Part shown: in pieces, positions 30,001 to 39,000 of the stretch
How positions within the stretch are numbered: the first letter of the stretch is position 1
How the letters are laid out: each line of letters starts with the position of its first letter
Sequence record: NZ_CP025492.2
Reading direction: 5' to 3' (one strand)
Source: a plasmid
DNA: 64,000 bases
Program-made: the position numbers

Positions 30001-33000
30001 AATCAGGCTGCATCAAAAAATGCCCGCTAATGTTTTTACCAGACCTTGTTCCAATGCGGGTCGTGCTTCTGCAAAACTCAGATTGACTTTATCGGCATTG
30101 GATACCACCCGCGTTCTATAGCGTTGGTAATCACTGTGTTTGCTCAATGTCTGTGTGGTTCCAGATGCAGTGCCATTTTGAAGGTTGGAATTAAACTGCT
30201 CATGAACAGTACCTTTTCCAACGCGCTCAGAAATTTGTACATCGGTAATCATCGTGTAATTCACTGCCTTGACTAGAGAATCTGCAGCCAAACCAATAAT
30301 TCCCCCACCAATACCTGCACCAATCATGGTGCTTGAATGACCGCTTAATGCACCCAGTGCAGTTCCTGTTGCTGCCCCTGCCAATGCACTGCCATACCCG
30401 CCACCTAGCGCGGATTGGCTTGCAGACGCGCTCATTTTTCCCACCTTAAGAATATTGGCCTGCAGCAGGTAATGGGCTTTGGATGGATTTCCAACCACTT
30501 TATAGCCATGTTCTTCTAATGCCTGCTTTAGTGACTTATCAATGGATAATGACTCTTGAGAAGTATTCTTAATTGTGATGTAAATCGTTTTTTGACTTTG
30601 AGCCACAGGATCAAGAAAAATCGTTTGGCTGAGTTTTGTATCTGTTTCTAAGTTACGATGTTCGATCACTGTTGATGTTGCAGCACAGCTCACCAACAGG
30701 GCAAAAGATCCAGTTAAAGCTAAAGTGGTAATTGCCTTTTGTATCTGGTTAATGCATGGTTTCATATTATTCCCTTAACTCGTTAGTATGGTGATTTGAA
30801 TGGTTAATGAGTCTGTACGCCCCGTGCTTCCTTCCACTGACCAGGCTTATTTAAAAACAGAGATTGTTCTTTTTTAATTTTTTGATGTATTTCCTGACGA
30901 TGAATAATTACATCTTGTGGTGCATCGAACCCTAAGCGGACTTGATTACCCTTAACACCGAGCACGGTGATATAAATGTCATCATTGATTAGTACGGTTT
31001 CGCCTATTCTACGTGTAAGTATTAACATGCTGTGTTCCTTTTATTGGTTAGTGAATTGAATATTCTTTTTTTTGTGAATCAATCTCGAATCGAAGCGCTT
31101 CGCATGCCAATCGTGCCTCCATTGCAATGTGCCAGAAATCGCATTCAGGGATTTCCTGATAGGCCAGAGCTAATGACTCAGAGCAGGCGTTTAAAAGACA
31201 GTACAGCTCTTCCTTTGTAAACAGTTTTAAACATGGAATTTGTTTCATCATGCAACTCCCAATAACTGGCGAATTTTCGCAAGGTGTGTTGTTGCAATGT
31301 CTTTTGATTGAGGCAAAGTGCACAGCACCTTCTCTTTAATTTCCGGGATCTGGTGTCCTTGTCTCATTAAATGACATACCCGTTCATATGCCTCTTTAAA
31401 TACTGCAAAAGAATGGCCTTCATTATCAATTTCCAGAAATTTAAGCCCCAGTCTTTTGGCAGTAAATTTAACCACTGCATGACTCCAGTTTGGGTTCGTT
31501 GAATAAGCGCTGTTTAAAACCTCCCTATGCGCCTCGGCAGCAGAAGGCAGGCGCAAATCACTATAAAAGCCAAGACACAAAGCTCGAAACTGCAGGCAAT
31601 TGGGTGGAAATTCACAAAACTTGTCGCCTTTACTCAATGTCATTAATCGCTCCACACCACTGTCTAATGCTTTTGGAGTTAAATCTTTAAGTGCAGCAAA
31701 CCAAACTCCTGTATCATTCACTCCATGCTTACTGATAAAAAGTTGCCCGTATATTGCAGTCAGCTTCATCCAGAGGCTGGACAAGTGTTCCTTCGATAAA
31801 TGAACCGGAGTTGAGTTCATTGCCTGAGGTGTCCCAGAGTGAGTCGATTGAAATGCCATGATGTTCGCTGACTCGCTCAAGTGCTGTTTGGTTAAGAGTG
31901 CTTTGATTTGTACCACGCTCATTGTGATGACTCCTTAATTGTCCTTGTGCCTTTTGTAGTTGTTTTTGCATGTATTGGGCATCTCGCTCAAGCCAGTTAA
32001 TGAATACTGGATTAAAGTCAGCCCATAGAGTGTTTTGTTTTTTGTTGTGCTTGATAAACGCCTGAATTTCTTCTTTGTCAGTTACTTTGGTTAGTCCCAT
32101 GGAAAATGCCATTTCGATGGTTTTTGTGTTTGGGTAAAAGTCATCGCAAATTGGTTTTTTGCTGCAACAAAAATCATTGCTCGCAATTTCAGTTTGTTTG
32201 TTTGAGTTAGTTATATTAAATATATTAATATTCTTTGCAGAGCTCTTTAGTGTGTTAGCTTCTCTGTTAACTTCTATGTTAGATTTTCCCTCTGAATCTC
32301 CTTCTCTATCAGAATCTATAAGGGATTTAGGTGAATTAAGATCTGTGTTAACTTCTTTCTTTATAATCAATTGATTATAGATCTTAGGGACCTCTGGGAA
32401 TATAAATTTTAAATTTTGCCCTTCAGTTATAACTTGAAAGTATTCGCTACACTCATGTTCTATAGACTTTATGAAATTTCTGATGGTTTGCTTAGATGGA
32501 ACACCACTGTTGATTCGACCTGGAGCGGTTTTAATCTCTAAGGATCTTGATAGATCACGATAACTAATGTCAGATACAATTCCCGTAAGAGGATTTGCAA
32601 GATTTAATAGTTCATAAATAATTAATCTAGGACCATAGGGTAATAATTGAAACTTTTTTTCTATTTGTTTCCTAGCATTAATGTATAACTCAACATCAAA
32701 CTTCATCAACAAATCCTTTTATTTATCTAATTTATTAGATAAGACTATCAGCCAATGGTAAAAATTACAATAATTTTTTTACCATTAAGGTAAATTTATA
32801 ATGATTTGTCATACCTAATATGCTATAACGCATTGTATTTTGATGTTTTTTATACTATTTTTTTGGTAAATTCTTACGAAGATTTATTAACCATTTTGGT
32901 ATATCATAGAATAAACATGCACCTGACTGAATTATTTAAATATGAGCAATCCTGTAATAGACAATGTTTCATCCCCCGAGTCTCGGGGCAAGAGAATAAG

Positions 33001-36000: not shown

Positions 36001-39000
36001 TGTCCTATGGGCTTTTGTTAATTTTATTGATCGTACTTGGAATATTTCTTTTTAATTTCTTATTTCTATTCCTTTCTATGAGAAAAAAAATAGCAAACAA
36101 TACCGAATACTTGCTTGATTTTATTTCATCACATCAAAGTAATAATGCTGTTGATTTTGCAAAAGTTGAAATTAATGAATATAGACAAATTGCTAATAAA
36201 TTTATTGATGAACATCGAGAAATAATCAATTTACAGAAAGAAAAAGCCTATTACGAGGTAAGAAAAAATATTGCTGAGCTTGTTGCTCACGATATCCGAT
36301 CACCATTAGCGGCAATAAACACCGCACTATCAGATGTAACATCGATTCCTGAAAATAAACGCATTATGATCAGAAATGCAGCTAAAAGAATCAATGATAT
36401 TGCTAATAACCTACTCTTACAATCTAAAAATAATTTGCTTGACTGTAAAAGTAGTGAAATATATATGAATAATTCTCCAGAATTAATATTTGTAGTTTTA
36501 GATAATATCGTTGCAGAAAAAAGATATGAATATTACGCAACCAAAATCCAAATCAACTTACTTGGGTCCGACCACTCATATAATTGTTTTTCTAAGATAC
36601 ACCCTGATTCTTTTAAGCGCGTTCTATCTAATCTCATTAATAATGGTATTGAGGCAGTTAATTCTAATGGCTCTATTATTATCTCTCTAACATGCAATAC
36701 TACGCATGTCGAAATTATTATTGAAGATAATGGCTGCGGCATTCCTCCCGATATCTTGCCAAAGGTTACAGAGCAAGGATTTAGCTTTAATAAGAAAACT
36801 GGTGCTGGTTTTGGTTTATCTTATGCTAAACAATATTTAGAGCAGATCAATGGTTCAATGCATATTCACTCTGAAGAAAAAGTTGGGACAAAAATTCATA
36901 TCACTCTAATTAGGTCTAACCCCCCTAGTTGGTTCTGTGACTCAATGAATATTAGGTATGGTACTAATATTGTCGTATTAGATGACGATATATCCATCCA
37001 TGACGCATGGAATGAACGGTTTTCAAATATTTCACACGTTAAAATGTTTCATTTTTATAACGCGATCGACTTAGTTCAGTATAAAGTTGATCCAAAAACT
37101 CCAATATTATATTTAGTGGATTATGAGTTGCTCGCTGATATTAAAAATGGTTTAGATGTGATTGAAGAGCTTAATTTAAATGGTAAAGCTATTTTAGTTA
37201 CCAGTTGCTTTGAAGATATTGCTATACGAAATCGATGTGAAAATATTGGCGTTAAAATCATACCAAAATCTTATGTACCTTATATTAAAATTATTGAGAC
37301 TCCAGAGAAAGAACTTATAAATACGGTGGTTTTTATTGATGATGATGAAATGATGCGAATGACTTGGATCTTTGCGGCTGAAGAGGCTGGACAAAGTATT
37401 TCAACCTATTCGTCATTTGATGAGTTCGTAAATGAAATAAATAATTATTGTAAGAATACTCTTATTTATATTGACTCAGATCTAGGAAACAATGTTAGAG
37501 GCGAGGATTGCGCAAAACTCCTTTTTGATAAGGGGTTTATTGACGTTCATCTTGCCACTGGCCATTCGCGAGATCGATTTCGCCAAGTGCCATGGATTAA
37601 AACAATTGTTGGTAAAGAGCCACCTTTTCAATTTGCACACGGGAATTCAACATGAACTCTACGGATAAAGATAAATTAAAACACGATTTTTTAAACTCAA
37701 TTGTTATCATCAACAGCATGACAAAATCTGCTTCGAGTTTCATGAATACAATTTCACAGTCAATGGATACCGTCGATATTAACCAAAAGCAGATGGAAAA
37801 ATTTTTATATTCTATGAGCGCTATACGTGAGCAAACTTCAAAGATTGAAAATTATTTTTTATCTCTTTTTAATGAATAATTGTGACAAATTATCTCTCTG
37901 CTAGATATGAGGAATATGAAACCACCCTTCCCCAATCTATAGAATCAGTTAAATGATCTTTGGTAATACTGTAGTAGTAATTGTTATCTAGCTTTTGCGC
38001 ATCAAATAAATAGTTAATCCACTCAGCTATTGGTTTTTTATATTCTTTTTCTGATAACAAGAATAATATTTTCTCTTTTTTTGTAACAGCGGCCATGGTC
38101 TGTTCGGGTAGCTCATATCCCCGCATTAAATCTAATTGATCTGACAGCTCTTTTACGTGTCTAAGGATAAGCCATGTAGGTTTGGCGTCTTTGTCAAGAA
38201 ATAAAAAACTACCTGAGTTATCAACTAGATAATACTCAACAGCCTGTGCTTGTATTAGAACACTAGCAAATAATTTTTGATATAATTCATTATCAAATAA
38301 ATTATTAATGGAGTTTTCATACGCATTAACTATATTTTTTGTTAACTCTCTGAAATAGCGCTGAGTTAGGTCATCCACAGCTAATGTAATTTCTGGATAT
38401 AGATTTTCACTTGTCTTGAGTATAAATTTATCAATTAAACCGTGATTGAAAGCTTTTATCGCAGTATCTTTATCTGCTTCAGCCGTTAGCATAATTTTAA
38501 AGATTTTTTTCTCTTTAATTTTTTTGCAAAATTCAATTCCGTTAATACCGGGCATTTGATAGTCCACAACTAACAATGGTGCATTCTCAAACCTTGCTTT
38601 ATGATAAAGCTGATTTAACATGTTACTAACATCAAAGCCAATAACTCGATCATTAGTAGTATCTAAATTCACATCATTCATTAATTTGAAAATTGATTGG
38701 GTGATATCTTGACAATCGTTATCAATAAGATGAAAAGCCATATCTGAGCTTGTAAGTGTTAGTATATTAAACTTTTGGCCAAATTCTAAATCTAACGCAT
38801 CCAAAAATGCTCTGTTATCATCTAAAAAAATGACTTTTATCGGATGATAAAAACAGGTAGGTCTTGCATCAATAATAGTCATATAGTAATTCCTCTACGT
38901 TACAGCCACAATTGCATCACCCATGATAAGTTGCCAATATTTCAGACCTTTAATTATAATGTATTGCTGTTAAGAAAAAATAATTAACATGGATGTCGCC

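Follow-up and report, generated by a model that had tools for sequence, protein, structure and literature searches.

A putative phosphorelay and CI-like repressor cassette facing the lvrA-csrA-tra genes of a Legionella plasmid

The lvrRABC genes have been described as regulators of type IV secretion system (T4SS) islands and of Trb-1 excision (PMC3864950, PMC4256840). On the T4ASS islands and plasmids concerned (Trb-1, LGI, and lvh), a repressor-like gene, whose product has helix-turn-helix (HTH) and SOS-repressor-like domains, lies divergent from lvrA, lvrB, and lvrC (csrA), 5' of the T4SS (PMC3864950, PMC4256840). The same layout is found in the 64,000-nt plasmid stretch analyzed here (sequence record NZ_CP025492.2; "the window", whose positions serve as coordinates throughout), where the lvrR-like gene opens a run of overlapping genes for a putative phosphorelay, and a gene for a response regulator (RR) of the LqsR family converges on the end of that run. 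Unlike the lvrRABC repressors, the window repressor belongs to a separate sequence family, seemingly lacks the S24 catalytic dyad, and is always found with an LqsR-like RR. LqsR and its Ralstonia relative PhcX are global regulators with an orphan output (PMC10653808). LqsR is known to be phosphorylated directly by LqsS and LqsT, and a 2021 survey recorded a second lqsR homologue, sometimes plasmid-borne, in 19 species (PMC8023197).

The papers found describe no two-component input to lvrRABC, which agrees with the first-pass annotation of this DNA, where no sensory input of this sort to lvr/CsrA-controlled T4SS elements was considered established; the literature search also returned no description of a linkage between such a repressor and an LqsR-like RR. 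Two-component relays, CI-like repressors, and signal-gated conjugation, the classes to which the components belong, are all familiar, while their combination and its conservation appear to be undescribed. With moderate confidence, we propose that the mobile-element phosphorelay and the CI-like repressor form one regulatory cassette guarding the divergent lvrA-csrA-tra promoter. Judged from sequence, the phosphorelay is probably a sensory input to the conjugation switch, by which an outside signal would control DNA transfer. No signal is known that triggers the transfer of Legionella plasmids and integrative and conjugative elements (ICEs), and the cassette supplies a concrete candidate input, amenable to testing by mutation.

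Linkage of the repressor to the response regulator

Loci were collected in a genome scan anchored on the RR, seeded with alignment A2 (alignment A1 was too divergent) and covering one genome per species; the scan gave 30 loci, onto which the window proteins were mapped by tblastn. The repressor family and an LqsR-like RR are neighbors in about 20 loci, with RRs 40–99% identical, on elements with an F-type T4SS (L003, L004, L014, L024, and L038) or a P-type T4SS (L041 and L044). In 14 of the 15 loci with enough flanking sequence, a member of the repressor family lies within ~6 kb of the RR gene (RRs 44–99% identical). Anchoring on the repressor gave the same picture, as all five informative members (48–82% identical) have an LqsR-like RR within ~8 kb, and the repressor outgroup at 33% identity has none nearby. 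For P0197 the look-up gave a 1.5-kb contig only. At E up to 0.001 the two families comprise 133 RR and 118 repressor proteins, and 24 RR and repressor clusters have longest contigs of identical length, taken as shared contigs. Repressor members with a named source all come from Legionella or Tatlockia, as do the close RR members, and the most distant RR relatives (~25% identity) come from Burkholderiales and Rhodanobacteraceae. Outside Legionellales, distant LqsR-family RRs (~25% identical) were also seen on Massilia and Dyella plasmids (L034 and L035), with a DUF4902 protein and parAB as neighbors at one locus and a HAMP kinase at the other.

The arrangement of the window recurs in full in L. 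steigerwaltii, L. maioricensis, L. bononiensis, L. drancourtii, L. erythra, L. quateirensis, one metagenome-assembled genome (MAG), and L. wadsworthii, and once more on a metagenomic plasmid (L038). The lowest identities among these loci are 64% for the repressor, 66% for the hydrolase, 67% for the periplasmic binding protein (PBP), and 44% for the RR. Other loci keep the parts in a different order. On the L. lytica plasmid the repressor gene is followed by a GNAT gene on the opposite strand, the kinase, the small protein, and the RR, and in L. drozanskii the repressor, GNAT, kinase, and small-protein genes form an operon that contains a 31-nt overlap and is met by a convergent RR gene. At L041, a collinear hydrolase-PBP-kinase-small protein-RR operon converges on the repressor gene; at L044 the kinase is accompanied by CN-hydrolase, SnoaL, and GNAT genes, and the RR is displaced by an insertion sequence (IS). 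The RR gene overlaps the 3' end of the repressor gene at L023, L040, and L042. The co-operonic arrangement of lvrR and relay proposed for the window in the first-pass annotation is therefore one arrangement among several, since the whole relay of L041 is a separate operon. Its wider proposal, a phosphorelay tied to the repressor-like gene facing lvrA-csrA-tra, is borne out by the repressor family and RR being neighbors in nearly every informative locus.

Across the loci the kinases share the transmitter and receivers while the sensors vary, with either two transmembrane (TM) segments together with a PBP and a hydrolase, or five to ~10 TM segments without a PBP. Wherever the PBP is encoded, so are the hydrolase and the 2-TM kinase sensor, and cassettes with polytopic sensors pair with a GNAT or CN-hydrolase/SnoaL enzyme. 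This pairing of sensor type with enzyme gene hints at a signal that is self-made or self-degraded. One transmitter, one miniature His protein, one RR, and one repressor combined with at least three sensor/enzyme sets amount to a natural case of modular phosphorelay rewiring on mobile DNA. Across about 20 loci, and in more than 100 protein clusters, an LqsR paralogue is locked to one small neighboring repressor, which suggests a specific partner in a family (LqsR/PhcX) that controls virulence traits in Legionella and Ralstonia.

Two loci carry further variations. In L. drancourtii scf_54 (L019, 11104-16086) there are two kinase transmitter copies, each ~75% identical to that of the window, one in a full kinase after the PBP and the second between the small gene and the RR; the pair may have arisen by duplication, or an additional sensor may signal to this RR. 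The Aquicella lusitana plasmid NZ_LR699117 (L036, 8001-9659) has a 30%-identical repressor homologue beside F-type tra genes, followed in stop/start overlap by a thioesterase and a protein with an autoinducer-binding domain, a different putative signaling set in the same slot.

Gene layout and protein families of the cassette

Five plus-strand genes overlap stop to start from the lvrR-like gene to a 75-aa open reading frame (ORF), and the ORFs, their order, and their overlaps are exactly as the first-pass annotation had claimed (Table 1). Read from the sequence, the repressor/hydrolase junction is TAATG with a 1-nt overlap, the hydrolase/PBP overlap is 17 nt, and the kinase/75-aa ORF junction is ATGA with a 4-nt overlap. 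The PBP/kinase overlap is 11 to 74 nt depending on the kinase start, for which the candidates are ATGs at 35538, 35544, and 35550; ATGAAAAATAA at 35550 overlaps the PBP stop. The RR gene converges on the 75-aa ORF with a stop-to-stop gap of 10 nt. In eight homologous loci, with repressor identity down to 64%, the overlaps are kept (-1; -17 or -23; -47 or -74; -4 or +13), and the tight packing is therefore conserved and not due to chance. A chance juxtaposition of cargo genes was rejected because both the linkage and the overlaps are conserved. No terminator-like site was found on the plus strand within 32942-37879, and promoter-like matches in the operon are rarer than in shuffles (30 against 49.8).

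Table 1. Cassette genes and adjoining regions in the window
Feature	Position	Strand	Description
lvrR-like repressor	32942-33592	+	216 aa; XRE/Cro-type HTH and LexA/CI-type S24 fold, apparently non-catalytic
Alpha/beta hydrolase	33592-34485	+	297 aa; distantly proline-iminopeptidase-like, probably cytoplasmic
Type I periplasmic binding protein (PBP)	34469-35560	+	363 aa; signal peptide MNLLNSSKAIILLFSILISPVVHA/QS
Hybrid histidine kinase	35487-37655	+	722 aa counted from the first ATG; probable start 35538-35550
75-aa ORF	37652-37879	+	Predicted two-helix protein; invariant H11-D-x-x-N15 motif
LqsR-family response regulator (RR)	37890-38882	-	330 aa; receiver and LqsR-type output domain
Divergent control region, lvrA-like/lvrR-like spacer	32713-32941		Palindromes and inverted repeat, candidate operators
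Presumed target side (context)	30804-32712	-	lvrA-like gene 31729-32712, two small ORFs, csrA/lvrC 30804-31028, then traT and F-type tra operon

Profile searches agree with the fold-level identities first given to the operon proteins, several of which are weak as labels. The hydrolase matches Abhydrolase_1 (E = 2.8e-10), and its HGGPG, GHSYG (Ser), NGFHDF (Asp), and HYPH (His) motifs are invariant in 10 homologues, leaving the triad intact. It had been named an S33 proline iminopeptidase; an alpha/beta hydrolase with HGGPG it is, and its closest relative in the PDB is the proline iminopeptidase 1mt3 (E = 8e-5), but its scores fall far under the family cut-offs (TIGR01250, 52.8 bits against 167.65; TIGR01249, 36.2 against 259.75). 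It has no signal peptide and no N-terminal hydrophobic segment and is probably cytoplasmic. The signal peptide of the PBP was judged by inspection. The Peripla_BP_6 match suggested for this protein was obtained (E = 7.9e-6) at a score under the gathering threshold, and the closest PDB relative is the branched-chain amino-acid binding protein 4gnr (E = 7.8e-6).

The architecture first assigned to the kinase (HisKA-HATPase-REC-REC) is strong for the ATPase (HATPase_c, E = 4.6e-21) and weak for the rest, with HisKA at E = 0.0087 and two very divergent receivers (REC, E = 0.0027 and 0.00039). The receivers carry DD...D...T...K signatures (Asp545 and Asp663/665), and the receiver region has no match among PDB sequences; the L. 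drozanskii (L014) homologue gives stronger receiver matches (Response_reg, E = 5.4e-7; cREC_REC, E = 3e-6). The hybrid kinase family NF041832 aligns over residues 266-595. TM1 (36-56) and TM2 (165-200) enclose a ~108-aa periplasmic loop and are followed by His268. Similarity to the L. lytica kinase, whose sensor differs, is confined to residues 200-714 (64%).

An exhaustive search for the 75-aa protein returned 22 representatives at E up to 0.001, of which 21 are stand-alone proteins of 72–98 aa; the 22nd (821 aa, seven matched stretches) was excluded from the alignment. His11 and Asn15 are the sole invariant columns in 22 aligned sequences (mean column identity 39%), and His11 is invariant in 15 locus copies. 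The gene is always directly 3' of the hybrid kinase or beside the RR. The protein had been put forward as a candidate Hpt, a name that the profiles do not support: Pfam, NCBIfam, and a PDB profile search were all negative, 12 family members give no Hpt (PF01627) match at E up to 10, and hhalign detects no similarity to the kinase DHp (probability 0.6%). Neither Hpt nor DHp-like was adopted as a name. A role in the histidine phosphotransfer step is nevertheless presumed for this protein because of its invariant His11 and Asn15 and its position after the hybrid kinase. Its KHDFLNSIVII segment presumably resembles the Spo0B/DcuS H-box, a likeness that no profile confirmed.

The RR has a receiver (Response_reg, E = 2.7e-11) followed by ~170 aa without a Pfam match. 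Its Asp107, Thr133, and Lys156 are invariant in 36 homologues and align with LqsR. Profile searches found no DNA-binding domain and no AAA+ or HTH domain, so that its description as atypical stands as far as the lack of an HTH goes; it is, however, not of unknown type, since it matches LqsR over the full length, including the C-terminal LqsR-type output domain (an antiparallel sheet, degenerate GGDEF-like). Among the annotated or Pfam-scanned neighbors of the RR in the window and related loci there is no lqsA-like (aminotransferase-type) gene, lqsA and lqsS not having been searched for directly. PhcX is likewise without lqsA/lqsS linkage, and this linkage is therefore typical of the LqsR family and not strictly defining.

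Control region, proposed mechanism, and alternatives

A fold search identified the lvrR-like protein as lambda-CI-like, an XRE HTH joined to an S24 beta-fold; its profile had given only a marginal XRE HTH match against the PDB (E = 0.0094), and the fold search settled the architecture. When the S24 dyad is placed by eye and motif (DDxMxP against GDSMxP) instead of by structure-based residue alignment, the Ser position (residue 127) is G/S/A/T/C and the expected Lys position is an invariant Arg166 among 38 homologues. The repressor thus placed appears to be without the S24 Ser/Lys catalytic dyad, and the variable Ser position and the Arg at the Lys position make RecA-stimulated self-cleavage unlikely. 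An SOS-inducible LvrR was accordingly rejected, the eye-aligned dyad positions not being conserved. The name lvrR holds for position and architecture, as the gene lies divergent from lvrA-lvrB-lvrC (csrA), 5' of the T4SS, but not for sequence or dyad: in BLASTP the protein has no significant similarity (E = 2.1) to the 216-aa XRE regulator at the LvrR position of the L. pneumophila plasmid NZ_CP021276, the one LvrR variant compared.

The 229-bp spacer between the lvrA-like and lvrR-like genes contains ACC-N5-GGT palindromes at 32781-32791 and 32890-32900 and a perfect inverted repeat, AATGGTAAAAA/TTTTTACCATT, at 32754-32786. Homologous loci have the palindrome at matching distances from the repressor ATG (about -52 and -161); 20 upstream regions contain 19 hits, compared with 0.2 after shuffling, but these hits are not independent because the regions are related. 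A looser pattern, ACCANNNNGGT, has four distinct sites in the 64 kb, two of which fall in the spacer. The palindromes are candidate operators to which the repressor would bind. An ACC-N6-GGT operator pattern was rejected for its wrong spacing, N5 being the conserved form.

In the proposed mechanism, the periplasmic type I PBP would capture a small extracellular ligand and modulate the 2-TM hybrid kinase. Phosphate would pass from His268 of the kinase to an internal receiver Asp, from there to His11 of the 75-aa protein, and finally to Asp107 of the LqsR-family RR. As the RR is without a DNA-binding domain, and as a repressor whose S24 fold is apparently not self-cleaving has no evident route of induction, the most economical hypothesis is an RR that acts on the repressor; this action would depend on phosphorylation, and direct contact with the C-terminal domain of the repressor would be the likeliest route. 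The outcome would be the switching on or off of the lvrA/csrA/tra promoter and of the repressor's own operon. The convergent, terminator-less layout could add transcriptional interference. A cytoplasmic hydrolase would more likely serve in the synthesis or breakdown of a signal, of the sort used in quorum or mate sensing, than report nutritional amino acids.

A more specific version is tentative and in our judgment rather unlikely to be right in full. In it, the LqsR-type output domain would be a protein-binding module; by docking on the non-cleavable S24 domain it would act, under the control of phosphorylation, as an anti-repressor or co-repressor, and Legionella conjugative plasmids and ICEs would run their own quorum- or mate-sensing circuits, with a co-encoded alpha/beta hydrolase, GNAT, or CN-hydrolase, according to the variant, making or degrading a signal that is read by interchangeable sensors. 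If true, docking would be the first mechanism for the long-unexplained LqsR/PhcX output.

Several observations weigh against the cassette as a sensory input to transfer. The mechanism of the output domain is not known even for LqsR (PMC10653808), and contact between RR and repressor is therefore purely our inference. The small protein matches no phosphotransfer family, and the kinase receivers are weakly supported by sequence. A 10/12 promoter-like match at 35460-35488, directly 5' of the kinase gene, is a possible internal promoter, so that the unbroken operon first proposed downstream of lvrR holds for terminators and less clearly for promoters. The MAG contig CAVYYU010000002 (L018, 604 kb, 10001-20094) has the repressor, a 132-aa ORF, the small protein, and the RR with no T4SS or kinase in view, next to a peptide-export cluster (MvdD-like ATP-grasp, HEAT-repeat protein, HlyD, and C39-peptidase ABC exporter). 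At L040 housekeeping genes surround the repressor, RR, and kinase, and the nearest 10 kb contain no T4SS; in L. bozemanae (L005) the parts are rearranged with no repressor within 10 kb. A minority of loci (L018, L040, and perhaps L042) thus show the repressor-RR pair with no T4SS in view, which the first-pass annotation had named as counter-evidence. In most plasmids the module also adjoins ParA/ParB/Rep, and linkage alone therefore cannot separate a role in transfer from one in replication or partition.

The best-surviving alternative, which we nevertheless consider unlikely, is that the plasmid LqsR paralogue and kinase are host-manipulation cargo that plugs into the host Lqs/LvbR network (virulence, motility, competence, and biofilm), the lvrR adjacency being no more than a cargo insertion site. 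The global roles of LqsR and PhcX, the additional plasmid-borne lqsR homologues of the 2021 survey (PMC8023197), and the loci L018 and L040 all fit this explanation, as does the slot 3' of the repressor, which elsewhere holds unrelated genes such as the Aquicella thioesterase and autoinducer-binding protein. On NZ_CP021276, an unrelated 216-aa XRE repressor is followed in this slot by a VUT transporter, a methyltransferase, and other genes, with no kinase and no RR. The same plasmid, however, indicates that the RR follows one repressor family and not lvrR genes generally. The pair moreover stays adjacent where genes are inverted, where the sensor is exchanged, and where the T4SS is of the other type, and pure cargo would not be expected to co-vary with the repressor as the RR does (paired RR/repressor identities of 99/100, 71/89, 65/79, 47/64, and 45/64%).

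Still less probable is a nutrient gate, the reading of the first-pass annotation, in which the hydrolase frees proline or other amino acids from peptides, a LIV-type PBP senses them, and transfer tracks the amino-acid supply. The closest solved relatives of the two proteins, the conserved triad and HGGPG, and the constant co-occurrence of hydrolase and PBP favor such a gate, but both similarities are remote and under family cut-offs. The amino-acid or peptide cue is also unsupported because the hydrolase looks cytoplasmic: lacking a signal peptide, it would act away from the site of ligand binding by the PBP. In sister cassettes the transmitter, small protein, RR, and repressor are unchanged, but the enzymes are GNAT or CN-hydrolase/SnoaL and the sensors are polytopic, with no PBP, a pattern more in keeping with dedicated signal chemistry than with bulk nutrients. 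Least likely of the three is that the relay governs plasmid replication, copy number, or partition: the RR end abuts ParA/ParB/Rep of several families in most loci, IS elements on plasmid NZ_CP045733 have removed the kinase and left the small gene and a frameshifted RR beside parAB-rep, and iteron-like repeats lie between the RR and parA, but plasmid backbones normally set transfer beside maintenance regions so that adjacency is expected, the Par/Rep families vary between loci while the repressor family is constant, and the invariant neighbor of the RR is the repressor even where no par/rep is in view (L023, L040, and L042).

Plasmid context and comparison with known systems

In Legionella wadsworthii DSM 21896, an 81-kb contig (NZ_JNIA01000001) matches the window at 99–100% identity. 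Left of the operon are a complete-looking F-type tra operon, traT, csrA (lvrC), and lvrA-like genes, and to the right are parA, parB, a RepB-type initiator, and a second parB-like gene. Although it was first described as an ICE, the element looks like a conjugative plasmid, as it carries ParA/ParB/RepB and matches Legionella plasmids.

The tra-csrA side is 96–97% identical to NZ_CP021276 (annotated "Vir protein", CsrA, TraT, TraA, and TraL). This identity stops at ~32285, inside the lvrA-like ORF, where the GC content drops from ~0.42 to ~0.30 and stays low over 32000-44000. Megablast of 32700-39200 against plasmids gave just two partial matches, and the well-known L. pneumophila plasmids do not carry the module. 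The lvrB-csrA-traT side of the L. erythra locus is 98–99% identical to the window, whereas the repressor is 64% and the RR 45% identical; repressor and relay are hence exchanged together, as a single cassette whose breakpoint is inside lvrA. With the L. erythra junction in this gene as well, lvrA seems to be the seam at which the tra backbone and the regulatory cassette recombine.

Beyond the RR gene, the stretch 38883-40568 (1.7 kb, 27–31% GC) has no ORF of at least 60 aa and might be an origin region or a non-coding transcript; an Rfam search over the whole window, including this stretch, found nothing. The strongest sigma-70-like match of the region lies within it at 38931-38960 on the plus strand (TTGCCA-18-TATAAT, 11/12), directed away from the RR. 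Five 15-nt tandemly spaced repeats resembling CCCATAAAGCTACAC occupy 40231-40348, with spacings of 19–39 nt, ~220–340 nt 5' of parA, and another copy is ~1.1 kb away near the RR start (39140-39154); they look like iterons or a ParB/ParA operator or centromere. On the Legionella sp. MW5194 plasmid NZ_CP045733 (L001, 9046-14241) the equivalent stretch contains an IS630, and of the kinase gene only the final ~160 nt are left, everything 5' of them being replaced by IS481 and IS21-like elements. The RR remaining there with the small gene is annotated as two fragments, which suggests a frameshift. This plasmid is typed as non-mobilizable, and the cassette is decaying on it.

Among described systems, the LqsR system (lqsA-lqsR-hdeD-lqsS, plus LqsT; PDB 6SY9) and Ralstonia PhcX have an RR of the same family as the window RR. 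Unlike LqsR, the window RR lies on a conjugative element beside a CI-like repressor, and it is partnered by a two-receiver hybrid kinase, a PBP, and an additional His protein, which together would form a four-step relay.

The likeness to the LuxP-LuxQ-LuxU-LuxO system of Vibrio (and to CqsS-LuxU-LuxO), noted in the first-pass annotation, is one of architectural logic: a type I PBP presumably partnered with a 2-TM hybrid kinase, a small His protein, and an RR, to which a co-encoded enzyme could be added as signal synthase. It does not extend to the protein families, into which none of the components falls. The PBP resembles Peripla_BP_6 (sub-threshold) and not LuxP, the kinase has two receivers, the small protein is without an Hpt match, and the RR is LqsR-type and not an NtrC-type sigma-54 activator.

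An HTH and S24-fold repressor at the switch of a mobile element is shared with the self-cleaving repressors lambda CI, LexA, and SetR and with ImmR-ImmA of ICEBs1, although the window has no ImmA-like protease and a phosphorelay is in its place. The components of TraI/TraR (Ti plasmids), Rap-Phr (ICEBs1 and pLS20), and PrgX/PrgQ (pCF10) are entirely different from those of the window, where a self-made signal is putative. What these systems share with the window is the concept of an element-encoded sensor, possibly with a signal enzyme, that decides on transfer, and prgQ/prgX also resembles the window in having a convergent gene pair at the switch.

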